Source: Escherichia phage vB_EcoM_G2469. From it: a stretch of 64,000 bases of DNA. The translations under genes and the position numbers were made by a program. The DNA lies in sequence record MK327934.1. The stretch is one strand, 5' to 3'. Position 1 is the first letter of the stretch. Each line of letters opens with the position of its first letter. Below, piece by piece: positions 2,172-56,826 of the stretch. The notes below the pieces were generated by a model. It saw nothing but the letters and a program-made list of their open reading frames with translations, ran no database searches and was not told the DNA's origin.

Positions 2172-3134
2172 TTATTTCCAAGTCAGTTCGCAGGTCAGTT
2201 GAAGAAGCATATACATAACATGTAATTCAATATTACTTGCTAATCCATGAAACTTATTGTTTTCGCCTGCAATTTCATAAAGCGAAATAATACTTTTACC
2301 AGGTGCAACTTGGTCATAACATTCTGAAACTAATTTATCGATGAACCATGAATAATCTGCGGCATATTTTGGAGCTAATGCACGAAGTTGTTTGATATCT
2401 TTATTTTTCATTGCTTCTATGACATCATCTACCGTGCCACGATCATTGGTTACAATCGACAAAATACCTGCATCAAGAACACCTTTAGACGAGTACTGGT
2501 CTAATTGACCAATTGTACGTCGAAAGTCCGGGAAGTTCTTTTTAACCAGAGCTGCAACAACTTTCATATCAGCGATTTCGATATTTTCGTTCTTACAGAT
2601 TTCAACCATGCGATGAATCATTTTCTTCATCATTGAGATTTTATCTTCTTCGGTTGGACGTCCGAATTCGATAACTCGACAACGACTACGTAACGGTTCG
2701 ATAATTCCATCGATGTTGTTGGCAGTAATAATAATAGAACAGTTACTAGAGAATTCTTCCATGAATGTACGAAGGTGACGTTGTGATTCAGCGAGGCCAC
2801 TACGGTCAAATTCATCAATAACAATAACTTTAGGCTTGCCTTCCATTGAGACTGAACGAGCGAATGCAGTTAATGGACCACGCACAAAATCAATCTTACA
2901 ATCAGAACCGTTGACGAACATCATTTCGGCATTGATATCATTACATAATGCTTTTGCTACGGTTGTTTTACCGGTACCAGGAGATGGAGAGTGTAAAATA
3001 ATATGAGGAAGTTTTCCTTTAGATACTAAAGACTTGAATGTTTCATGGTCATACGCAGGCAGAATACATTCGTCAATGGAAGAAGGACGATATTTCTGTT
3101 CTAGAATGTGTTCTTTGGAATTGATAGTAATCAT
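2172..3134 (-). CDS. 44: clamp loader ATPase subunit gp44 (AAA+)
   Basis: 320-aa ORF with Walker [11 protein letters not shown] and Walker B VIVIDEFD; T4 gp44-like. Confidence 0.9.
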
Positions 3135-3209: not shown

Positions 3210-3966
3210 TTAGAAGTCGTGAGTAGAATCGGCTTCCATCGCAATAACATAACTTACTTGAGAGCTTTCAAACTTGGCTGCAACTTTATCACCAGCTCCC
3301 CACAACATTACTTTATAGTTACCTGGCTGGATTTTCATATTAGCCATATTGATTACGAAGTTAAAGTTGTTAGAACCATCATAATCGGTAAGAGTCAAAG
3401 AATACTTAGGACGAGTTAGTCCAGAATCTTCAACTTTATTATAGCCATTGATAACAATTTTACCATCTTTATTTGTAATAGCAATTGTATCAATCTGAAG
3501 ACCACGTGAAACTCGAAGTAATTGTTGAAGGTCTTCGGCTTTAATTTCAGTAATCACAGAAGCCACCGGGAATTGAATTGGCTTATTAGGAAAAACAATG
3601 GTGCTCTTGTCAGCGGCAGGCCAATAAACTGTGGAACGTGTATCTGCAATTTTAATATTGCCATCAGTGTGCATTGAAATTTCAGCATCATCAGACACTA
3701 GACTCAAAATGCTTAAGAAGCTATTCAAATCATAAAGTGCTATCATCAGACACTAGACTCAAAATGCTTAAGAAGCTATTCAAATCATAAAGTGCTACGT
3801 CAAAATCAATTTCATCAGAGATATTTGCTTCCGCATAAGTGGTGCCATTAACTGCACGAGTCATAATAAATTTACCTTGACTCAGCAGAATGCCGGAGTT
3901 AATAGAGGCGAAGTTTTTCAGAATAGCGATAGTATCTTTAGACAGTTTCATTTTATTTCCTTTCAA
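3210..3966 (-). CDS. 45: sliding clamp gp45, reading frame interrupted by a 55-bp tandem duplication; read as two ORFs 3730..3966 and 3210..3746
   Basis: N-fragment MKLSKDTIAILKNFASINSGILL...LSLVSDDSTL* and C-fragment MIALYDLNSFLSILSLVSDDAEISMHTDGNIKIAD...; removing one repeat copy restores a continuous 233-codon gp45. Confidence 0.85.
3688..3797. repeat. perfect direct tandem duplication, 2 x 55 bp
   Basis: 3688-3742 and 3743-3797 are identical (tcatcagacactagactcaaaatgcttaagaagctattcaaatcataaagtgcta); boundary ambiguous by 1 bp. Confidence 0.9.
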
Positions 3967-3993: not shown

Positions 3994-4410
3994 TTATGCA
4001 GCAACAATCTGCTTTTTAATAGCTTCAGGCAGTGATTCAATATATTCTGGAATTTTAGAAGCAACAATTTCGCCAGCTGCAATTAGTTGTTCGTCGGCAT
4101 CAACACAGTAGAAATCTTCTAGACGCTCAGAACCGTCTTTATCAAGAACTATTTTTCCGCCAGCTTCAATAGAATCTTTATAGTGCTTACGCATCAGATG
4201 AATCCACATATCAGATACATCATTATCAATAAAACCATAAATCATAAAACGAGTTTCTTGTGGCAAAGATTGGAGTTTTTTAGCACTTGCGTCATCACAA
4301 TGCAGGACCCATGCTTTACGAACACGATTATGGTTATGTGGGTTAGCGTCAGTACGGATAGAAGTAACTTTCAGATCAGCAGCAGTGAAACCTTTAGCAG
4401 TAGTAAACAT
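3994..4410 (-). CDS. rpbA: probable RNA polymerase-binding protein RpbA
   Basis: 138-aa ORF directly upstream of gene 45, position as T4 rpbA; named by synteny. Confidence 0.55.
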   Translation of the reverse strand: MFTTAKGFTAADLKVTSIRTDANPHNHNRVRKAWVLHCDDASAKKLQSLPQETRFMIYGFIDNDVSDMWIHLMRKHYKDSIEAGGKIVLDKDGSERLEDFYCVDADEQLIAAGEIVASKIPEYIESLPEAIKKQIVAA

Positions 4411-4422
4411 ATTATTTCTCTC

Positions 4423-4614
4423 TTATTCGTAGAAGTCGGTAACTGTCCATGCGGAATTGCGATTAGACATTATTTTATTATACTCATCTTTAAAAGCAGA
4501 TTTGAGCATTTGTTCAGTAACAATATGTTCTTCACCTGAAAACGTATTGGTCAAAACATATTTTTTAATTTCAGGGACAACGAGAAGATGTTGTCCGGTT
4601 GAATACTCCGCCAT
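4423..4614 (-). CDS. hypothetical protein (position of T4 45.2)
   Basis: 63-aa ORF between rpbA and gene 46 region. Confidence 0.5.
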   Translation of the reverse strand: MAEYSTGQHLLVVPEIKKYVLTNTFSGEEHIVTEQMLKSAFKDEYNKIMSNRNSAWTVTDFYE

Positions 4615-4638
4615 TATAAATCTCCGAGATTAAAGCAA

Positions 4639-4646
4639 TATAAATA
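4639..4646 (+). promoter_or_regulatory. T4-type late promoter TATAAATA for the plus-strand HNH gene
   Basis: Exact TATAAATA on the plus strand about 45 nt upstream of ATG 4692. Confidence 0.55.
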
Positions 4647-4691
4647 GGTTTATCAATTTATCTGTTGCTGTATCAAATAAGGATTTAGTAA

Positions 4692-5408
4692 ATGAATTAT
4701 AACTCAATATACGAAAAGCTTATCACCAATGCTAAATCAAGAAGTTTAGATGGTTATACAGAACGTCATCACATTATACCACAATGTTTAGGTGGAAGTG
4801 ATGATGCTTTAAACTTAGTAGACTTAACACCGGAAGAACATTATTTGGCACATCAACTGTTGGTAAAAATCCATCCAGATAATGCCTCTTTAATATATGC
4901 CGCTCGTATGATGACCATATCATCTCCTAAAGCAGATAGAAGCAAAAACAAATTATTTGGATGGCTTCGACGTAAGAATCAAGAAGTTCAAAAGAACAAA
5001 GAATTCACTGCTGAAACCCGTAAGAAAATGTCTGAGTCTGCAAAAAATAAACCAAAGATTACATGTCCACACTGCGGTTTAACCGGCACTGAAGGAAACA
5101 TGAGACGTTGGCATTTTGATAACTGTAAACAAGGCCCTACGCCTAAAATAGTAAAACTTGATCAAGAAACAAAAGATAAAATAATTAAAACCATGGCCAC
5201 GAAAATTTGGAAAGAAGATTCTTGCCCGTTTTGTGGCTTAACTACTAAGTTATCGGCGTTAAAGCCACATATAAAATTCTGTAAATCAAATCCTAACAGA
5301 AAGAAAAAAGAGGACAAGAAAATTAAATGTCCTCATTGCGATAAAATAGGGATCCCTGCTAATATGCATCGTTGGCATTTTGATAACTGTAAACATAAGC
5401 CTCATTAA
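4692..5408 (+). CDS. HNH endonuclease with three C-terminal zinc-finger-like repeats (putative free-standing homing endonuclease)
   Basis: HNH core ERHHIIPQCLGGSDDALNLVDLTPEEHYLAHQLL; three repeats of CPHCG...NMRRWHFDNC; only substantial plus-strand gene in the early block; AAGGA RBS upstream. Confidence 0.8.
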   Translation: MNYNSIYEKLITNAKSRSLDGYTERHHIIPQCLGGSDDALNLVDLTPEEHYLAHQLLVKIHPDNASLIYAARMMTISSPKADRSKNKLFGWLRRKNQEVQKNKEFTAETRKKMSESAKNKPKITCPHCGLTGTEGNMRRWHFDNCKQGPTPKIVKLDQETKDKIIKTMATKIWKEDSCPFCGLTTKLSALKPHIKFCKSNPNRKKKEDKKIKCPHCDKIGIPANMHRWHFDNCKHKPH

Positions 5409-7093
5409 GAGGCTTTCATTACAGTAAATCGTCCAACTTTGCTCATTTGCAAATGTTGTCCATAAGCTTGTGGGTCATGGTCTCTGTGACTAATTATAAA
5501 CACGTTTGCATCGGTTAGAGAGTTAAGAATTGTTGAAATAGCTTTAATACCTTCAGAATCAGTCGCGGAATCCATGACTTCGTCCATAATTAATGTATTG
5601 ATTCTAACACCAGAGACCTTTTCAGCGATATCTCGCCATGTAAACAACAATGCGATATCGATACGTGCCTTTTCACCTTGACTAAATGAAGCATAACTGA
5701 ATTCTTCACGTCCACGTGATTTTATAGATTCATTGAATTCTTCGTCAATAGAAAACACGTAATCAGCTTCCATGATTTTAAGATAATGGTTAATCTGCTT
5801 GTTGAACAGAGGCACATATTTTTTAATGATAGCACCTTTAATACCAGAATCTTTTAACATATCTGTGATAATACCACGATGGTATTTTTCAAGAACGATA
5901 TCCGATTTTGTTTTAATGATTTTATCAAGTTCTTTTTGAAGCAAAGCTATCTCATCGGCATGGTCGATAAATTCCGCCGAGGCTTGTTCTATTGCAGCTT
6001 TAACTTTCTTAGCTTTATCAATAGTGGCAATCATTGCTTGTTTCTTGGTACGAATATCAGATGCAATGTCCTGTTTAGTCTTAACATTAGCTCTATATTC
6101 GTCCACTAGGACACTCAGATTATCTCTGTGACAGGTAAGTTGCTCGAATGAGTGATTACATTCATGAAGCTTATCGGTAATCTTAGAGACAATAGGATCA
6201 CCCTGGTGCAACTGTGATGCACAAGTAGGACATGTGCCGCCATCATGATACATCTTAATAACTTTGTTATATGAGTCAATTTTAGATTTAATCAAGAATG
6301 CTTCTTGTCCTATCTTGTTGAATGCCTCAGTAGGGTCTTCATCAAGAACGATATTAAGTAGTCGCTCATTAGCTTCTTCTATTTCTGCTTTTAATGAACG
6401 AGCTTCTTTGGCTAGGTCGTCATACATATTCTGTAGACGCGCTACATTATCACCAGATAATTTCTTTTGACGTTCGATATTCTCGTTATAAATCTTAATT
6501 TGTTGGATAACACCATCTTTCTTGGCATCGAGAACTTGTCCCTGGGAATTAAGTTCTCGAACTTGAGACTTATTGATTTTATCCATTTCAGCGAGTGTGC
6601 CGACTTCTAAAAGGTCTTCGACAAGTTTTCTACGAGCAGGGGTGCTAAGAGCCATGAAAGGGGTATACCCTGCCGTCCCAAGCACAACTATTTGTTTAAA
6701 AGACGCGTATGACATTCCGATGCTACGTTCAAATTCTTCTTGGAAGTCACGACTGCTGGCAGATTCATCGAGACGAACACCATCAACGGAGATTTCGAAA
6801 ATATTGGGCTTTTGGCCACGTCTAATGAAGTATTTTTTATCATCGAATTCCATCCAAAGCTCAACTAAGAGCTCTTTCTTGTTCGTGCTATTAATGATTT
6901 GTCCTTTCTTAACATCACGAAATGGTTTACCGAAAAGTCCGAAAGTAATGGCTTCTAACATCGTAGATTTACCACCGCCGTTTTTACCTGTGATTAAGGT
7001 CTTTTGGACTTTATCTAATTGGATATCGATAAAATTTTGCCCAACAGACATTATATTTTTATAACGAACACGATTTAATTTAAATGTTTTCAC
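5405..7093 (-). CDS. 46: recombination endonuclease subunit gp46 (SbcC/Rad50-like ATPase)
   Basis: 562-aa ORF, Walker A GKNGGGKST, long coiled-coil, C-terminal signature; apparent GTG start at 7091-7093 directly after an in-frame stop. Confidence 0.9.
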   Translation of the reverse strand: MKTFKLNRVRYKNIMSVGQNFIDIQLDKVQKTLITGKNGGGKSTMLEAITFGLFGKPFRDVKKGQIINSTNKKELLVELWMEFDDKKYFIRRGQKPNIFEISVDGVRLDESASSRDFQEEFERSIGMSYASFKQIVVLGTAGYTPFMALSTPARRKLVEDLLEVGTLAEMDKINKSQVRELNSQGQVLDAKKDGVIQQIKIYNENIERQKKLSGDNVARLQNMYDDLAKEARSLKAEIEEANERLLNIVLDEDPTEAFNKIGQEAFLIKSKIDSYNKVIKMYHDGGTCPTCASQLHQGDPIVSKITDKLHECNHSFEQLTCHRDNLSVLVDEYRANVKTKQDIASDIRTKKQAMIATIDKAKKVKAAIEQASAEFIDHADEIALLQKELDKIIKTKSDIVLEKYHRGIITDMLKDSGIKGAIIKKYVPLFNKQINHYLKIMEADYVFSIDEEFNESIKSRGREEFSYASFSQGEKARIDIALLFTWRDIAEKVSGVRINTLIMDEVMDSATDSEGIKAISTILNSLTDANVFIISHRDHDPQAYGQHLQMSKVGRFTVMKAS

Positions 7094-7950
7094 TTAAATT
7101 TTTCCTCATGAATTCAGAAACTAAAGCCTGTAAAGAACTTTGTATAGGATATCCTAAATTGACTAAATTTTTAGAAAAAGTCACATATTTAGGTTTGTTC
7201 ATTTTAACCCATTCAACGTAAAGCATATCAAAATTTTCCCAATGATATCCTTTTCTTCTAGATTTCAAATGAGTGTCTCTAACTTTAGGATTTTTCCAAC
7301 TGCGTGAAACTCCAGCCGATAATGATTCTCTATATTCGGCTGTTTTAGATATTTTACGACAAGCATCCAAATGTTTTTGTTTATTAATAGGGTCACTAAA
7401 CCACTTTTGGGTCATAATAGAGACGGTTTCTTTAAATTCCTTTGAACTTGTCATAATTCTGTGTTTCTTTAAATTTTCCGGATTTTTAAACCATGCTTTT
7501 AAAGCTTGACTAATCTTAATTCTATTATCCTGATTGGAATAGTATAATGTCATTTTTATAGAATTAACTTTACAAACATTTTCGAATTCTAAAGAATACG
7601 CCTCGGCTATATTATTTAGTTCATGCGTTGTACAATTTAAATTAAATCGCCCGGTATACATTCTTTGAAGCGCGTTAATCATCTTATGGTTGCCAGTTTT
7701 TGCCAAAATGCTATGTGCAATAAAATGGTTATAATGACTTAAATGACACAAGTTCCATTTACATGTTTTAAAATCTGGAAAAATAGATTTTGGTAGTATA
7801 TGGTGAACCTGAGTCAGTCCTTTTACTTTATTAGTGGAATTAGTTTTTATAAAGTTTAAATACTCATCAAGTCCTTCCCACGAAGGGAAGGAGGTTTTAA
7901 GAATTTTATAAATTTGAGTTTCATAATCAGTCTTCGTCATTATACGCATC
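7080..7950 (-). CDS. HNH-like endonuclease with C-terminal NUMOD-like repeats (putative homing endonuclease)
   Basis: Motif VHHILPKS...WNLCHLSHYNHFIAH; repeats WFKNPENLKKH / WFSDPINKQKH / WKNPKVRDTHLK; overlaps gene 46 start and the upstream ORF. Confidence 0.6.
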
Positions 7951-14177: not shown

Positions 14178-14648
14178 TTAATCATGTTTCCACACCCCAT
14201 CGGTATTTGACCAAAGTCGCTGATTATCTGATCCTCGCCACAGCTTTTTAGTCGGAAGATTTTTCTCATACTTCCCATCAATAATAACATCAACATATTT
14301 AAGCATTTCTAGTTGTTTAATATCTTCAAACTTATATCCTGTCCACAACCAAATGCTTTTATTGGGATAAAGATTTTTTACTGTTTGAGCAATGCAATGA
14401 ATAACATCTCGGTTATCAGGATAGAGAGGGTCACCTCCGGTTATAGTTAATCCTTCTATATAATCATTATTCAAACATTCAATTAATTGTTCTAGTGTTT
14501 CACCAGTGAATGGAACACCATTTCTAGCATTCCATGTTGATTTATTATAACACCCTTCGCATTTATGCAAACAACCCGTAACGAAAAGAACGACCCTGCA
14601 TCCGGGGCCATTCACAAAATCGCAAGGATAAAATCTATCATAATTCAT
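14178..14648 (-). CDS. nrdG: anaerobic ribonucleotide reductase activating protein NrdG (radical SAM)
   Basis: 156-aa ORF, CxxxCxxC motif GCLHKCEGC; adjacent to nrdD. Confidence 0.9.
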   Translation of the reverse strand: MNYDRFYPCDFVNGPGCRVVLFVTGCLHKCEGCYNKSTWNARNGVPFTGETLEQLIECLNNDYIEGLTITGGDPLYPDNRDVIHCIAQTVKNLYPNKSIWLWTGYKFEDIKQLEMLKYVDVIIDGKYEKNLPTKKLWRGSDNQRLWSNTDGVWKHD

Positions 14649-16462
14649 TGGTGTTTAACCCTATGCATGATTTCTTTATTTTTACCGAGATTAAATCCGC
14701 GTTCGTTCGGATTTCCCAAATAACCGCATGTTCTTCTTATGGTGTTCATCTTTTTAGGATCAGTTTCTCCACAGATAGAACAAACAAATCCGTTTTCAGT
14801 AGGAGTCATTTCATGGGTACTTCCACATGTAAAACATTTATCTACTGGCATATTAACACCAAAATAATCTAAATGTTGTGCAGCATAATCCCAGACGGCC
14901 TCAAGTCCTTTTAAGTTATTTTTCATATCAGGAAGTTCAACATAAGAAATGTGACCACCTGTCGCAATGAAATGATATGGCGCTTCACGAGAAATCTTTT
15001 CAAACGGAGTAATATTTTCTTCTACTGAAACGTGGAAACTGTTAGTGTACCAGCCTTTATCGGTAACATCTTTTACACTTCCATATTTTTCTGTATCGAG
15101 TTTACAGAAGCGATAACAAAGGTTTTCAGCAGGAGTAGAATACAAACTAAAAGCAAAACCAGTTCTTTCAGACCACTGTTTAAGATGAGCATTCATTTTA
15201 GTTAAAATTTCTTGTCCAATATCACGACCGACAAGAATATTCAATTCGTGAATACCAATGTATCCTAAAGACACTGAACTTCTACCGTTTTTAAATAACT
15301 CAATTATGTCGTCATCAGGTTTAAGACGAACCCCGAATGCACCTTCTTGGTAAAGAATAGGAGCAACAGTTGCTTTAACACCCTTTAAAGAACTAATTCT
15401 ACACATCAAGGCTTCAAAACACAGATCCATTCGTTCATTAAACAATTCGATAAATTTCTGTTCATTGAACTGTGTTCCAATATAAGAATCTAATGCGATA
15501 CGAGGAAGATTCAGTGTTACAACACCAAGATTATTACGTCCATCAAGAATTTCATTACCGGTTGAATCTTTCCACACACTCAAAAAACTGCGGCAACCCA
15601 TTGGAGAAACAGGAATAGATGAGCCGGTGATAGCTTTATTGTTCTTAGCTGAAATAATATCAGGATACATTCTTTTGCTTGCACATTCTAACGCAAGTTG
15701 TTTAATATCATAGTTCGGATCATCTTTATAAAGATTAACACCTTCTTCAACAAACATAACAAGCTTAGGGAAAATAGGAGTTATCCCATCACGACCAAGA
15801 CCTTTAATACGATTTTTCAGAATTGCTTTCTGAATCATTCGTTCAGTCCAGTCAGTTCCCGTACCAAATGTAATTGTTACAAAAGGCGTTTGCCCGTTTG
15901 AACTAAAGAGAGTGTTTACTTCATATTCATAAGCTTGGAATGCATCGTATACATCTTTTTCTGTTTTAGATTGAGCATAATTCAACGCATCAGCGATTTG
16001 CCATTTTTCTGCATCCTCAATATGTTTTGCATAGGTGCGTTTAACATAAGGAGAAAGTACTTTATCTACATTAGCAAAAGTCGTTCCGCCGTATTGGTGG
16101 GAAGCAACTTGTGCAGTAATTTGTGCCATAATTGCAGTAGCAACACCAATCGATTTAGGCGTTTCAATTTGAGCATTGCCTAATTTAAATCCGTTCTCAA
16201 GCATCCCCTTTAAATCGACTAAACAGCAATTAGTAAATGGAAGAGCAGGGGAATAATCAATATCGTGGAAATGGATAATTCCGCTTTCATGTGCTTTCAT
16301 AATAAAAGACGGGACCATATTTTTGGCAATGTGTTTAGACACAATACCAGCCATAAGGTCCCGTTGAGTTGGAAAAACACGAGAATCTTTATTAGCATTC
16401 TCGTTTAAAAGGTCTTTATTAGTTTTATTAATCAGTCCTTCAATTTCTTTTTCAATTTTCAT
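14645..16462 (-). CDS. nrdD: anaerobic ribonucleoside-triphosphate reductase NrdD, uninterrupted (no intron)
   Basis: 605-aa continuous ORF ending ...RRTCGYLGNPNERGFNLGKNKEIMHRVKHQ (glycyl radical region). Confidence 0.9.
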   Translation of the reverse strand: MKIEKEIEGLINKTNKDLLNENANKDSRVFPTQRDLMAGIVSKHIAKNMVPSFIMKAHESGIIHFHDIDYSPALPFTNCCLVDLKGMLENGFKLGNAQIETPKSIGVATAIMAQITAQVASHQYGGTTFANVDKVLSPYVKRTYAKHIEDAEKWQIADALNYAQSKTEKDVYDAFQAYEYEVNTLFSSNGQTPFVTITFGTGTDWTERMIQKAILKNRIKGLGRDGITPIFPKLVMFVEEGVNLYKDDPNYDIKQLALECASKRMYPDIISAKNNKAITGSSIPVSPMGCRSFLSVWKDSTGNEILDGRNNLGVVTLNLPRIALDSYIGTQFNEQKFIELFNERMDLCFEALMCRISSLKGVKATVAPILYQEGAFGVRLKPDDDIIELFKNGRSSVSLGYIGIHELNILVGRDIGQEILTKMNAHLKQWSERTGFAFSLYSTPAENLCYRFCKLDTEKYGSVKDVTDKGWYTNSFHVSVEENITPFEKISREAPYHFIATGGHISYVELPDMKNNLKGLEAVWDYAAQHLDYFGVNMPVDKCFTCGSTHEMTPTENGFVCSICGETDPKKMNTIRRTCGYLGNPNERGFNLGKNKEIMHRVKHQ

Positions 16463-35487: not shown

Positions 35488-35867
35488 TCGGTAATAAAAC
35501 GTTCAACTTCATTATTCTTGGCCTTTATCTTGTCTTTACGTTCCTGTAAACTACTTTTAACAAGATTAATAATGATGCCTACAGTACCTCCACCAATAAT
35601 ACCACCAATAATACTTACGATAGTAGATGCTAATAAGATAGCGATAATATCTAGTATAGCAAAGGCACTTACTTTAGTACTAAAAAACCACACTGACGGT
35701 ACAAATATAATCCATCCTGTTATCCATTGGCACTTATTGAAAAACTTTTCAAGCTCAGCTTGAGTTGTTCGTATTACTTCATCGATAGGTTGATATCCAT
35801 TAATGTATCTGTTCACGATAATACCTGCTGGCTGGTTGATTTTAAATTCTTGGCAAATATGTTTCAC
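35469..35867 (-). CDS. hypothetical membrane protein
   Basis: 132 aa with hydrophobic, Gly-rich transmembrane segments. Confidence 0.5.
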   Translation of the reverse strand: MKHICQEFKINQPAGIIVNRYINGYQPIDEVIRTTQAELEKFFNKCQWITGWIIFVPSVWFFSTKVSAFAILDIIAILLASTIVSIIGGIIGGGTVGIIINLVKSSLQERKDKIKAKNNEVERFITECRNLR

Positions 35868-45046: not shown

Positions 45047-45125
45047 TTGTTTTTTCCGTTTGGTTTGTGATTTGATATGATGATAGTATCACACCATCAT
45101 CCTTATGTAAACTGTTTTGTGAAAA

Positions 45126-51757: not shown

Positions 51758-53731
51758 ATGGCAAACACTCCTGTAAATTATCAGTTAGTCAGAACAGCGA
51801 ATGCTATTCCCGAGATTTTTATCGGGGGCACATTTGCCGAAATCAAACAGAACATTATTGAATGGCTCAATGGGCAGAATGAATTTCTTGATTATGATTT
51901 TGAAGGTTCGCGTTTAAACGTATTGTGTGACCTTTTAGCATATAACACTCTTTACATCCAACAGTTTAGTAATAGCGCAGTGTATGAAAGTTTTATGCGC
52001 ACTGCAAACTTGCGTAGTTCTGTTGTACAAGCGGCTCAAGATAACGGATATCTGCCTTCATCTAAATCAGCAGCACAAACAGAAATTATGCTCACATGTA
52101 CGGATGCATTAAATAGAAACTATATCACCATTCCACGTGGCACTCGTTTCTTAGCATACGCTAAAGATACTTCTGTTAACCCGTATAACTTTGTTTCTAC
52201 TGAAGATGTCATTGTAGTTAAAGACAAAAATAACCAATATTTTCCACGTCTTCGATTAGCTCAAGGACGTATTGTTCGCACTGAATTAACATTTGATAGA
52301 TTAAAACCTATCATTATTCGTGATAAGAATATTGACCGTAATTTGGTTAAGTTGTATGTTGACGGAGCAGAATGGATTAACTGGACTCGTAAGTCGATGG
52401 TTCACGCTGGTTCTACGTCAACAATCTATTATATGCGTGAAACAGTTGATGGGAACACCGAATTTTATTTTGGTGAAGGCGAAATCTCTATTAACACATC
52501 AGAAGGTGCGTTAACATCTAACTATATTGGTGGCCTTAAACCTGTTCAGGGTTCTAAAATCGTAATTGAGTATATTTCTACTAATGGCGCAGATGCTAAC
52601 GGTGCTGTAGGATTTTCTTATGCTGATACATTAGCTAATATCACGGTAATCGATATTAATGAGAACCCTAGCAATAACCCAGACTTTGTCGGGGCTGATG
52701 GTGGCGGTGACCCTGAAGATATTGAACGTATTCGAGAATTAGGCACAATTAAACGCGAAACTCAACAACGTTGTGTAACCGCTTCCGACTATGACACATT
52801 CGTCTCTGAGCGGTTTGGTTCTATTATTCAAGCGGTTCAAACATTCACAGATTCATCTAAACCAGGGTACGCATATATTGCTGCTAAGCCTAAATCTGGA
52901 TTGTATTTGACTTCTGTTCAACGCGACGACATCAAAAACTATTTAAATGATTATAACTTAGGGACTATTACACCTGTTGTTATTTCGCCTGATTATTTGT
53001 TTATCAAAATGAATATCAAAGTTACATACGCGTTGAATAAACTTCAAGAATCAGAGCAATACCTTGAAGGGCAGATTATTAATAAAATAGACCGTTATTA
53101 TATTGAAGATGTAGAAATTTTTAACTCATCGTTTGCAAAATCTAAAATGCTAACTTATGTCGATGATGCAGATATTTCTATTATTGGTTCTTCGGCTACT
53201 ATTCAAATGGTTCGCGAAGTACAAAACTTTTATAAAACGCCTGAGGCCGGTATTAAATACAATAATCAGATTAAAGATAGATCGATGGAATCTAATATAT
53301 TCTCGTTTGATTCGCACAGACCTAATCCAGAAAATGCAAACGAAACTATTAAATATGGTGTTCGCATAGTATCTTCTGACCGTAATGACCGTGGCATAGG
53401 TCAAGTTATTATTGGTCCATTTGCAGACGGCGATGTTGTTGAAAACGAAAATATACAACCTTATACAGGTAATGATTTTAATAAACTTACTGTTACTGAC
53501 GGACGAAACAAATACTATTCAATTGGTGAAGTGAATTATCCTGCCGATTCGATTTATTGGAACATTGCTAAAATCGACCTCACTTCAGATCGTTTTGAAG
53601 TTCAAACAATTGAACTTTATTCCGACCCTGCAGATGATATTATTTTTACAAAGGATGGTTCTTTAATCGTATTCGAAAATGACTTACGTCCTCAGTACTT
53701 AACTATAGATTTGGAGCCTATTTCACAATGA
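51758..53731 (+). CDS. 6: baseplate wedge protein gp6
   Basis: Start MANTPVNYQLV after an AGGA RBS; about 658 aa. Confidence 0.9.
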   Translation: MANTPVNYQLVRTANAIPEIFIGGTFAEIKQNIIEWLNGQNEFLDYDFEGSRLNVLCDLLAYNTLYIQQFSNSAVYESFMRTANLRSSVVQAAQDNGYLPSSKSAAQTEIMLTCTDALNRNYITIPRGTRFLAYAKDTSVNPYNFVSTEDVIVVKDKNNQYFPRLRLAQGRIVRTELTFDRLKPIIIRDKNIDRNLVKLYVDGAEWINWTRKSMVHAGSTSTIYYMRETVDGNTEFYFGEGEISINTSEGALTSNYIGGLKPVQGSKIVIEYISTNGADANGAVGFSYADTLANITVIDINENPSNNPDFVGADGGGDPEDIERIRELGTIKRETQQRCVTASDYDTFVSERFGSIIQAVQTFTDSSKPGYAYIAAKPKSGLYLTSVQRDDIKNYLNDYNLGTITPVVISPDYLFIKMNIKVTYALNKLQESEQYLEGQIINKIDRYYIEDVEIFNSSFAKSKMLTYVDDADISIIGSSATIQMVREVQNFYKTPEAGIKYNNQIKDRSMESNIFSFDSHRPNPENANETIKYGVRIVSSDRNDRGIGQVIIGPFADGDVVENENIQPYTGNDFNKLTVTDGRNKYYSIGEVNYPADSIYWNIAKIDLTSDRFEVQTIELYSDPADDIIFTKDGSLIVFENDLRPQYLTIDLEPISQ

Positions 53732-56700
53732 CAGTAAAAGCGCCAGCAGTCACAAGTCTCAGAATATCCAAGTTGTCCGCTAACCAAGTTCAAATACGCT
53801 GGGATGACGTTGGTGCTAATTTCTACTATTTCGTAGAAATCGCTGAGACTAAAACGGCAGACGGGGGAATAATTCCCCCTGCCAGCTACAGATGGATAAA
53901 TTTAGGATATACTCCTAATAGCAACTGGTTCGAAAGTAGCTTAGACCCATTAACTTCTTATATTATTCGTGTATCAACTGCCGCCGAAGGCTTCGAGAGA
54001 TCTGATTGGGTATATACCGAAATATTTGAATCATTTCAGACTAACGCGTATACATTTCAACATATGATTGAAATGCAATTGGCTAACACTTTTATTAGAG
54101 AAAAATTTACAAATAACAACATGGCTTATGTCGATTTTAATAACGACACTATAATGGCAGCTCTAATGAATGAATCGTTCCAATTTAGCCCTGCTTATGC
54201 GGATATTTCATCTATTAAAAATTTCATTATTGGCGAAAATGAGTATCATGAAATTCAAGGTTCGATTCAACAGGTGTGTCATGATATAAACCGTGTTTAT
54301 TTGATGGAATCCGAAGGAATTCTTTATTTGTTTGAACGGTATCAGCCTGTGGTTAAAGTCTCTAATGATAAGGGACAAACCTGGAAATCGGTTAAATTGT
54401 TTAATGACCGTGTAGGGTACCCTGTATCAAGAACAGTGTATTACCAGACAGGTTATACCACGTATGTTCTTGGGTATGATAAATTATTTTACGGCCGTAA
54501 ATCAACTGACGTTCGTTGGTCTGCTGATGATGTGAGATTTAGTTCCCAAGATATAACATTTGCTAAAATCGGCGACCAGTTAAATTTAGGATATGATGTA
54601 GAAATATTTGGTAACTATGCATCATTACCTGCTAACGTATCACGTATTGCAGAAGCTATCGTTTGCAATGACGATTATGTATACGTTGCTGCTCGAGATA
54701 AAGTTCGTTTTATTAAAACTAGTAATGCCCCTATCGATTCAGACCCGTTATCTCCGACATATTCCGAACGTTTGTTTGAACAAGAAACATTTAACATCAC
54801 AGGTAACCCTAAGGCAGTTTGTTATAAAATGGATTCTGTCGGTGGTAAAATATTTGCACTGATTATCGGTGAAGTTGTTAATCTTAACGATGACCCGAGG
54901 ACCACTCCTATTGTTGATTCTGCTGATAAGGGTGTTTACGTTCTAGACCATGATGCTGGCACATTTAAACGTGTGTTTGGTAATACTGAAGAAGAACGTC
55001 GTCGTATTGAACCTGGGTACACCAGTATGTCTACTGATGGTGTTGAGTTATCTATTTCATCTAGTAATTTTAAATTTCTAGAATCTGATATTGTTGATGA
55101 CCCAAAAACACAAATCAAGTACGGTTTAATCGGTGCTGTTAAATATGAGTATCCTAGTGAATGGCTGGCTGATAAACATTATCATATGATGGCATTTATT
55201 TCAACTGAAGACTCTCAATGGGAATCGTTCACTCCCCAACCAATGGAATACTATGCTGAGCCATTCTTTAGTTATTCTAGAAAGTCTGGTACTCGTTGTT
55301 GGATTAATAACTCAGACAAAGCCGTTGTAATTTATTCTGATTTACTTTACACTAAGGTTATTGAGAATCATCCACTTAGTTCTTTAGACCGTGAAGTTCA
55401 TGAATATTGGAAGGATGGCGACTGTACAATAGTGATGCCTAACGTAGATTTCACCGGATTTAAAAAATATGCATCCGGCATGATTTTCTATAAATCATCA
55501 GGTGAGATTATTTCTTATTATGATTTTAGTTATCGTGTTAGAGATAATGTTTCTATAATTTGGAAGCCTACTAATATATTCTTAACAGCATCGTTACAAA
55601 ACCAAGAAAAAGATACCACATGGACTCCTGTAGAAGAGAACGGCATTGCGGACCCAGATTTACGACCATTGCTCACTACAATGATGCCGGAGTCTTATCT
55701 TTTAGATAATACAAACTTCGAAGCATTCTGCGAGGCTTATATTCAGTATCTTTCTGACGGCTATGGGACCCATTATAACAACCTTTTAAATCTTATTAAA
55801 AATCAATATCCGCGCGAAGAACATGCGTGGGAATACTTATGGTCTGAGATTTATAAACGAAACATTTACTTAAACGCCGAAAAACGCGATTTAGTGTCTC
55901 GTTTCTTTGAATCAAGAAGTTATGACTTCTATTCAACTAAAGGAACTGAAGCATCATATAAATTCTTGTTTAAAGTGCTTTATAACGAAGATGTTGAAAT
56001 TGAAATTGAATCTAGTTCCGGGACCGAATATGATATCATCATTGAATCTGATTCGTTGACAGAAGATTTGGTCGGACAAACCATATATACCGCGACAGGA
56101 CGTTGTAATGTGACGTATATCGAGAGAAGTTACTCTAAAGGTAAATTACAATGGACTGTAACAATTCACAACCTTTTAGGACGTTTAATCCAAGGTCAAG
56201 AAGTTAAAGCTGAAAGACTCCCGGGTTTTGAAGGTGAAATTGTTCGTGGTATTAAAGGTAAAGAGCTTTCTCAGAACAACATCGATTACATAAATCGTGG
56301 TAGAGCATACTACGTAATGAAGATTAAATCTAAACTTCCATCATCTCGTTGGAAATCAGACGTATTACGTTTTGTTCATCCGGTTGGATTTGGATTTATC
56401 GCAATTACCCTTCTCACAATGTTTATTAACACCGGATTAACACTTAAACATGTTGAAACCATTATTAATAAATACAAAAACTATAAGTGGGATTCTGGAT
56501 TACCGACTAAATATGCAGACCGAGTGGCTAAATTAGACCCACAAGGAAATGTTGAGTTTAACCCTATTACAGGTGAAGCGATATACGAAATAGGCCCTAT
56601 GGCTGGTCAAGATTATCCATTGCCTGAAGATTATAACGCTGAAAACAATAACTCCATATTTCAAGGTCAACTTCCATCGGAACGACGTAAACTGATGAGC

Positions 56701-56826
56701 CCATTATTTGATGCGTCCGGAACAACATTCTCTAGATTTAGAGATTTGGTTGAACAACGGTTAATCGATAATGTAGGAAATCCAAGAGACCCCGTGAATC
56801 CACCACAGGTTAAATTAGATGAATGA
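53728..56826 (+). CDS. 7: baseplate wedge initiator gp7
   Basis: 1032-aa ORF, same length and position as T4 gp7. Confidence 0.9.
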   Translation: MTVKAPAVTSLRISKLSANQVQIRWDDVGANFYYFVEIAETKTADGGIIPPASYRWINLGYTPNSNWFESSLDPLTSYIIRVSTAAEGFERSDWVYTEIFESFQTNAYTFQHMIEMQLANTFIREKFTNNNMAYVDFNNDTIMAALMNESFQFSPAYADISSIKNFIIGENEYHEIQGSIQQVCHDINRVYLMESEGILYLFERYQPVVKVSNDKGQTWKSVKLFNDRVGYPVSRTVYYQTGYTTYVLGYDKLFYGRKSTDVRWSADDVRFSSQDITFAKIGDQLNLGYDVEIFGNYASLPANVSRIAEAIVCNDDYVYVAARDKVRFIKTSNAPIDSDPLSPTYSERLFEQETFNITGNPKAVCYKMDSVGGKIFALIIGEVVNLNDDPRTTPIVDSADKGVYVLDHDAGTFKRVFGNTEEERRRIEPGYTSMSTDGVELSISSSNFKFLESDIVDDPKTQIKYGLIGAVKYEYPSEWLADKHYHMMAFISTEDSQWESFTPQPMEYYAEPFFSYSRKSGTRCWINNSDKAVVIYSDLLYTKVIENHPLSSLDREVHEYWKDGDCTIVMPNVDFTGFKKYASGMIFYKSSGEIISYYDFSYRVRDNVSIIWKPTNIFLTASLQNQEKDTTWTPVEENGIADPDLRPLLTTMMPESYLLDNTNFEAFCEAYIQYLSDGYGTHYNNLLNLIKNQYPREEHAWEYLWSEIYKRNIYLNAEKRDLVSRFFESRSYDFYSTKGTEASYKFLFKVLYNEDVEIEIESSSGTEYDIIIESDSLTEDLVGQTIYTATGRCNVTYIERSYSKGKLQWTVTIHNLLGRLIQGQEVKAERLPGFEGEIVRGIKGKELSQNNIDYINRGRAYYVMKIKSKLPSSRWKSDVLRFVHPVGFGFIAITLLTMFINTGLTLKHVETIINKYKNYKWDSGLPTKYADRVAKLDPQGNVEFNPITGEAIYEIGPMAGQDYPLPEDYNAENNNSIFQGQLPSERRKLMSPLFDASGTTFSRFRDLVEQRLIDNVGNPRDPVNPPQVKLDE

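Follow-up and report, generated by a model that had tools for sequence, protein, structure and literature searches.

A perfect 55-bp tandem repeat that splits the sliding-clamp gene 45 of a T4-like phage sequence is most likely an assembly artefact

The window (the whole stretch of 64,000 nucleotides that was analysed) contains a Mosigvirus (RB69-like) region in which gene 45, the gene of the sliding clamp, is situated between gene 44 (2172-3134) and rpbA (3994-4410). The same neighbours are found in RB69 and in phage EP32a. The coding sequence of gene 45 is interrupted by a tandem repeat of 55 bp. The features of the locus are listed in Table 1.

The repeat is reported by Tandem Repeats Finder as a single array at 3687-3797 having a period of 55, 2.0 copies, 100% matches, no indels and a score of 222. 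Direct string comparison shows that positions 3687-3741 and 3742-3796 are the same letter for letter. On the coding strand the unit reads ALYDLNSFLSILSLVSDD, which corresponds to the last base of the V52 codon followed by codons 53-70. One further base, an A found at 3687, 3742 and 3797, stretches the identity to 111 bases. Owing to this extra A, the identical copies given as 3688-3742 and 3743-3797 in an earlier note, which was made from the letters of this DNA, are confirmed in a register that is shifted by one base and is equally valid. The left neighbours of the two copies are unlike, being C at 3686 and T at 3741. The homology past the 55-bp unit is therefore 1 bp only, which is at chance level, and microhomology of several base pairs was not found at the end-points of the duplication. 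The number of perfect 55-bp tandem copies expected by chance in 64 kb is 64000 x 4^-55, or about 5e-29, which excludes a chance origin. Tandem Repeats Finder detected no second repeat of this kind in the 64 kb window. The sole other array that it reported is a perfect 12-bp x 2.1 tandem repeat, CCACCAATAATA, at 35590-35614, which is in frame (a multiple of three) and probably trivial.

Table 1. Coordinates of the repeat, of gene 45 and its fragments, and of the nearby homing-endonuclease inserts in the window
Feature	Position	Strand	Description
Gene 45 (sliding clamp)	3210..3951	-	228 aa once one 55-bp copy is removed
gp45 N-fragment	3730..3951	-	Residues 1-70 + S-T-L-stop, 73 aa; stop TGA at 3730-3732
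gp45 C-fragment ORF	3210..3746	-	M-I + residues 53-228, 178 aa; begins MIALYDLNSFLSILSLVSDD...
Repeat copy 1	3687..3741		Unit ATCATCAGACACTAGACTCAAAATGCTTAAGAAGCTATTCAAATCATAAAGTGCT; minus strand: final base of codon V52 + gp45 codons 53-70
Repeat copy 2	3742..3796		Sequence the same as copy 1
Junction of copies 1 and 2			Reads ...AAAGTGCT / ATCATCAGAC...
Shine-Dalgarno core AGGA	3958..3961	-	6 nt before the native start codon of gene 45, ATG at 3949-3951
Homing-endonuclease insert 1	4610-5415 (ORF 4692-5408)	+	238 aa, free-standing; phrog_655, E=6.9e-67
Homing-endonuclease insert 2	7093-7918 (ORF 7080-7940)	-	286 aa; same family, phrog_655, E=4.5e-31

The length of the unit equals 3 x 18 + 1, and reading consequently shifts by +1 after the first copy, the frameshift following codon 70. 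As 55 cannot be divided evenly by three, gp45 looks to gene callers like two ORFs. The N-terminal ORF spans 3730..3966 on the minus strand, and its last residues are LSLVSDDSTL followed by the stop. Its protein matches positions 1-73 of the 116 positions of the Pfam DNA_PPF model (E=4.6e-17). The C-terminal fragment matches the Pfam gp45-slide_C model with E=8.6e-45 and also positions 55-115 of DNA_PPF. Jointly the two fragments hold all gp45 residues, with an overlap of 18 residues. The break falls at position 73 of 116 in the Pfam model of the N-terminal domain and not in the inter-domain linker.

The ATG at which the C-terminal fragment restarts (3744-3746) is located 14 nt upstream of the stop codon of the N-terminal fragment. 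It is an out-of-frame ATG contained within the GAT GAT codons of D69-D70, and it is present in both copies of the repeat. The ATG of the second copy enters the gp45 frame because of the +1 shift; its equivalent in copy 1 opens a junk ORF at 3554..3691. No core of at least 4 nt derived from AGGAGG was found within 20 nt upstream of the restart ATG.

When one copy of the repeat is removed, the protein is 228 amino acids long and 100% identical to the crystallised gp45 of RB69 (PDB 1B77/1B8H). The repaired protein also gives a full-length match to T4 gp45 (E=7.8e-118) and contains both Pfam domains, DNA_PPF and gp45-slide_C, a two-domain full-length product being obtained only after the removal of one copy. 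The earlier note had asked for this alignment to a reference gp45. Its description of the locus as a perfect 55-bp duplication with a frameshift and two overlapping gp45 ORFs, 3730..3966 and 3210..3746, is borne out by the ORFs, and so is the spacing of 14 nt between ATG and stop. Removal of one copy does restore continuity, as the note had stated, but the continuous gp45 is 228 amino acids long when it is read from the ATG at 3949-3951; the 233 codons quoted there are counted from an in-frame TTG further upstream. The restart ATG was said to be created at the junction of the repeat, which is not the case, since it is a pre-existing ATG that occurs in each copy.

The double copy was sought in other sequences. 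A query of 851 nt spanning the locus matched 199 phage records, and in the best 40 of these (98.5-99.3% identity) the match is 796 nt long, corresponding to one copy. One copy each is also present in 26 relatives and public contigs that were fetched. The alignments of the relatives to the window break at 3742, where they overlap by 55-56 nt in the relatives' own coordinates. A 90-nt query centred on the junction gave, among the matches listed, only two-piece hits that collapse onto 56 nt per record, and no contiguous match across the junction was found with this query among 50,697 phage records at E<=1e-25. In scans of IMG/VR and of JGI metagenomes, the 55-mer occurs once each in two IMG/VR contigs and in two genome-length metagenome contigs. 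A 37-mer spanning the junction is not present in IMG/VR, and a scan of GTDB genomes did not find the 55-mer. The four public contigs found to contain it hold one internal copy each, and none has it at both termini.

Twenty independent contigs from NCBI, ENA and Logan encode proteins identical to the homing-endonuclease neighbours of gene 45 in the window. These contigs are 96-98% identical to the window, and all 20 have an intact 228-aa gp45. Neither of the two gp45 fragments was found as a called product in an index of 153 billion gene positions. Gene 45 is an uninterrupted gene of 228 codons in every relative examined, showing that the split arrangement is not conserved, and a literature search for a split or duplicated gene 45 found no paper. 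The possibility raised earlier that a reference phage carries the same duplication was thus not seen among the relatives examined, all of which are single-copy.

The quality of the remaining sequence was assessed by comparing the window with its nearest full-length relative, Mosigvirus mar005p1 (about 97% identity). The comparable ORFs are cleanly intact in 83 of 90 cases. Among the seven flagged ORFs, six are either antisense or depart from the relative in nothing but their predicted start or length, and gp45 is the sole conserved gene that is split in two within the 64 kb. The remaining indels relative to mar005p1 are intergenic or, in divergent stretches, compensate each other in pairs, and none lies beyond position 45068, in the final 19 kb of the window. 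A generally error-prone sequence was considered as an explanation of the split gene and rejected on these grounds. As judged from the sequence, the duplication is a single isolated lesion in DNA that is otherwise clean.

The best matches in the phage collection as a whole are about 97% identical to the window, and megablast found nothing matching it in the collections of E. coli genomes and plasmids. The exact NrdD (605 aa; 14645-16462) and gp7 (1032 aa; 53728-56826) proteins of the window have no record in the index of 153 billion genes.

The length of the repeat, 55, is equal to a k-mer size used by a common assembler, in the SPAdes/metaSPAdes series. In both metaSPAdes and short-read SPAdes, 55 is the default largest k (21, 33, 55). 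The ends of metaSPAdes and MEGAHIT contigs have been reported to overlap by exactly the largest k, with 55 being a member of the SPAdes k series (COBRA, PMC10914622). SPAdes has left a slight overlap between the start and the end of a circular replicon, and such end overlaps need to be removed (PMC5481147); in another case the ends of a circular SPAdes contig were described as "overlapping by 55 bp" (PMC8851603). Identical termini are routinely used to call circularity (PMC5332604).

These observations suggest how the repeat could have arisen. A T4-like genome is circularly permuted and would assemble as a cycle. A de Bruijn-graph assembler would cut this cycle at some arbitrary site, in this case within gene 45, to write a linear contig whose initial k bases (k = 55) recur at its other end. 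If the overlap were left untrimmed when the contig was subsequently closed, or given a new conventional start, or treated as circular and read through its ends, the two end copies would become adjacent and form a perfect internal tandem repeat of 55 bp. Guidelines call for T4-like genomes to be re-opened after rIIB (PMC8785237), as a result of which an untrimmed end overlap would move into the interior of the sequence. There is a precedent in short-read SPAdes/Shovill assemblies of phages containing internal repeats of about 79 bp, which Sanger sequencing showed to be artefacts in most of the phages having them (PMC10438801).

The second 55-bp copy is thus very probably an artefact of assembly or finishing and not phage DNA. 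The points in favour of an artefact are the exact length of 55, the 100% identity of the copies, the lack of a double copy elsewhere, the clean repair of gene 45 and the occurrence of a single lesion. The homology of 1 bp beyond the unit fits an artefact and is unlike what slippage would rely on. The analysis demonstrated directly that the repeat exists, that it is unique among the sequences searched, that gene 45 can be cleanly repaired and that the remaining window is intact; the assembler history, for its part, we infer from the length of the repeat. Against an artefact it may be said that a real spontaneous duplication could measure 55 bp by coincidence. It is most likely that the actual phage carries the unit once and makes a normal clamp of 228 residues, and that the 55-bp duplication is not a real feature.

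A real but non-functional duplication, arising spontaneously as a tandem duplication in a defective genome or in a sub-population caught by the consensus, is very unlikely. Spontaneous mutations of T4 are known to include tandem duplications that shift the frame, and the sequence as given does contain the duplication. The window is otherwise of high quality, so that random sequencing noise is not the cause. A genome of this kind might survive through complementation by co-infecting wild-type phage in a high-titre lysate, or it might represent dead DNA in a metagenome. However, a stock that is being propagated should not come to be dominated by genomes with a lethal frameshift in an essential gene: T4 lacking its clamp and clamp-loader genes does not propagate unless a helper plasmid is provided (PMC8121543). 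The flanking homology, moreover, is limited to the single base pair, the length coincides exactly with an assembler k, and no other genome or contig searched has the duplication. Slippage and illegitimate recombination usually use several bases. Repair after a cut by one of the homing endonucleases, whose genes are 0.9 and 3.3 kb away, was also considered as the source of a duplication and was set aside, because it leaves viability, the exact k length and the missing microhomology unexplained.

It is less probable still that the duplication is both real and tolerated. The clamp would then be made by termination and reinitiation as two pieces (residues 1-70 with S-T-L, and M-I with residues 53-228), each carrying the duplicated segment 53-70, and the pieces would have to reassemble into a functional trimeric ring for the phage to be viable. 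The ATG and the stop are indeed close, at 14 nt, and a close overlap of ATG and stop can permit translational coupling in bacteria and phages; the fragments together do cover every residue of gp45, with the 18-residue overlap. Nevertheless, AGGA precedes the native start at -6, but the 20 nt next to the restart ATG contain no AGGAGG-like core of at least 4 nt, and the cut lies inside the N-terminal domain instead of at the linker. Since no relative examined has the arrangement, selection for it is not indicated; nor does the 100% identity of the copies suggest persistence, and the literature search returned no paper on such a gene 45.

The repeat could also stem from an artefact of another type, namely two contigs that were broken at a branch of the graph in a strain mixture and were concatenated untrimmed, or an insertion made during polishing or gap closing. 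The join of two contigs predicts the same 55-bp k-mer signature (PMC10914622), and the presence of two homing-endonuclease inserts that are combined in none of 20 related contigs could hint at a mixed sample. On the other hand, no switch in the similarity of the window to 27 related loci is seen from one side of the junction to the other, a result that also speaks against a chimera of two strains joined at this point, and these phages are normally mosaic in their content of homing endonucleases. This origin of the repeat is given very little credence.

Of the three options offered in the earlier note, the evidence thus favours the assembly artefact, given that the double copy is unique and that its length is a standard k. 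The headline of that note, a biological lesion in an essential gene, is unsupported, no other sequence searched having the double copy. The coupled reinitiation that it had also proposed lacks a ribosome-binding site and would leave the clamp cut within a domain.

The repeat can be compared with several known systems. It resembles the end overlaps left by de Bruijn-graph assemblers (SPAdes/metaSPAdes and MEGAHIT) in being a perfect direct repeat of length k (55), in having an arbitrary position and in being absent from relatives. Such overlaps are situated at the two termini of a contig, however, whereas here the copies are adjacent and in the interior, suggesting a later closing or rotation of the contig, or a circular read-through. 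The repeats of about 79 bp in przondoviruses (PMC10438801) are likewise short, assembler-sized and contained within SPAdes/Shovill phage assemblies, but in those T7-like genomes they are found in the terminal-repeat region or close to it. The present repeat has a different k (55 as against about 79), and it interrupts an essential gene in a T4-like genome that is circularly permuted.

Essential genes of T4-like phages that are naturally split or recoded share with gene 45 of the window that a replication-related essential gene is seen as two ORFs. Examples are the split topoisomerase genes 39/60, with the translational bypass of gene 60, and genes interrupted by homing-endonuclease genes or introns. 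Natural split genes are conserved among relatives and have an intervening element or a defined recoding signal. In gene 45 of the window, by contrast, only the gene's own 55 bases are duplicated, and there is neither an intervening element nor a ribosome-binding site nor a relative sharing the arrangement. Compared with the gp45 structures of RB69 and T4 (PDB 1B77, 1CZD), the repaired ORF matches, and the version in the window is frameshifted after codon 70.

The main consequence of the repeat concerns the quality of the data. If it were deposited as it is, the genome would be 55 bp too long and the clamp gene would appear as two CDSs or as a pseudogene. A mis-annotated clamp could mislead comparative studies, inferences about essential genes or a "defective phage", and protein databases. 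A perfect internal tandem repeat having the length of an assembler k (55, 77, 99, 127 or 141) may serve as a cheap general flag of error in phage and plasmid records. Were the duplication real and tolerated, it would mean that a replication clamp works as two overlapping fragments, a natural case of fragment complementation; nothing in the present analysis supports this.

The two homing-endonuclease genes near gene 45 belong to the same family. Compared with RB69 and EP32a, insert 1 is additional DNA that separates gene 45.2 from gene 46, and its gene is transcribed in the direction opposite to all of its neighbours. Its 238-aa product has no Pfam hit above threshold, and an identical protein is present in at least 26 blocks of public assemblies. 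Insert 2 takes the place that the DUF5487 (gp46.1) gene has in relatives and overlaps the start of gene 46. It is not present in RB69, EP32a or mar005p1, nor in ten of the 20 related contigs that were fetched; an identical 286-aa endonuclease was found in at least 27 blocks. Ten of these 20 contigs carry one of the endonuclease genes and ten the other, and none has both, while in the window both are present and flank gene 46. This combination may be ordinary mosaicism, or it may hint that the sample was mixed.

In the related phage PP400782.1, a 296-aa ORF has been inserted at 4449-5339, separating gp45 from rpbA and sharing 4 nt with the gp45 start. It has no Pfam hit and probably encodes one more mobile endonuclease at this locus. 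Several related contigs have nrdD divided between two gene calls, on either side of GIY-YIG (SegE-like) or NUMOD-containing ORFs (L019, 615-3478; L022, 432-3294; L023, 1377-3474), which is likely to be due to interruption by an intron or a homing endonuclease. The nrdD gene of the window (14645-16462) is a single ORF of 605 amino acids.
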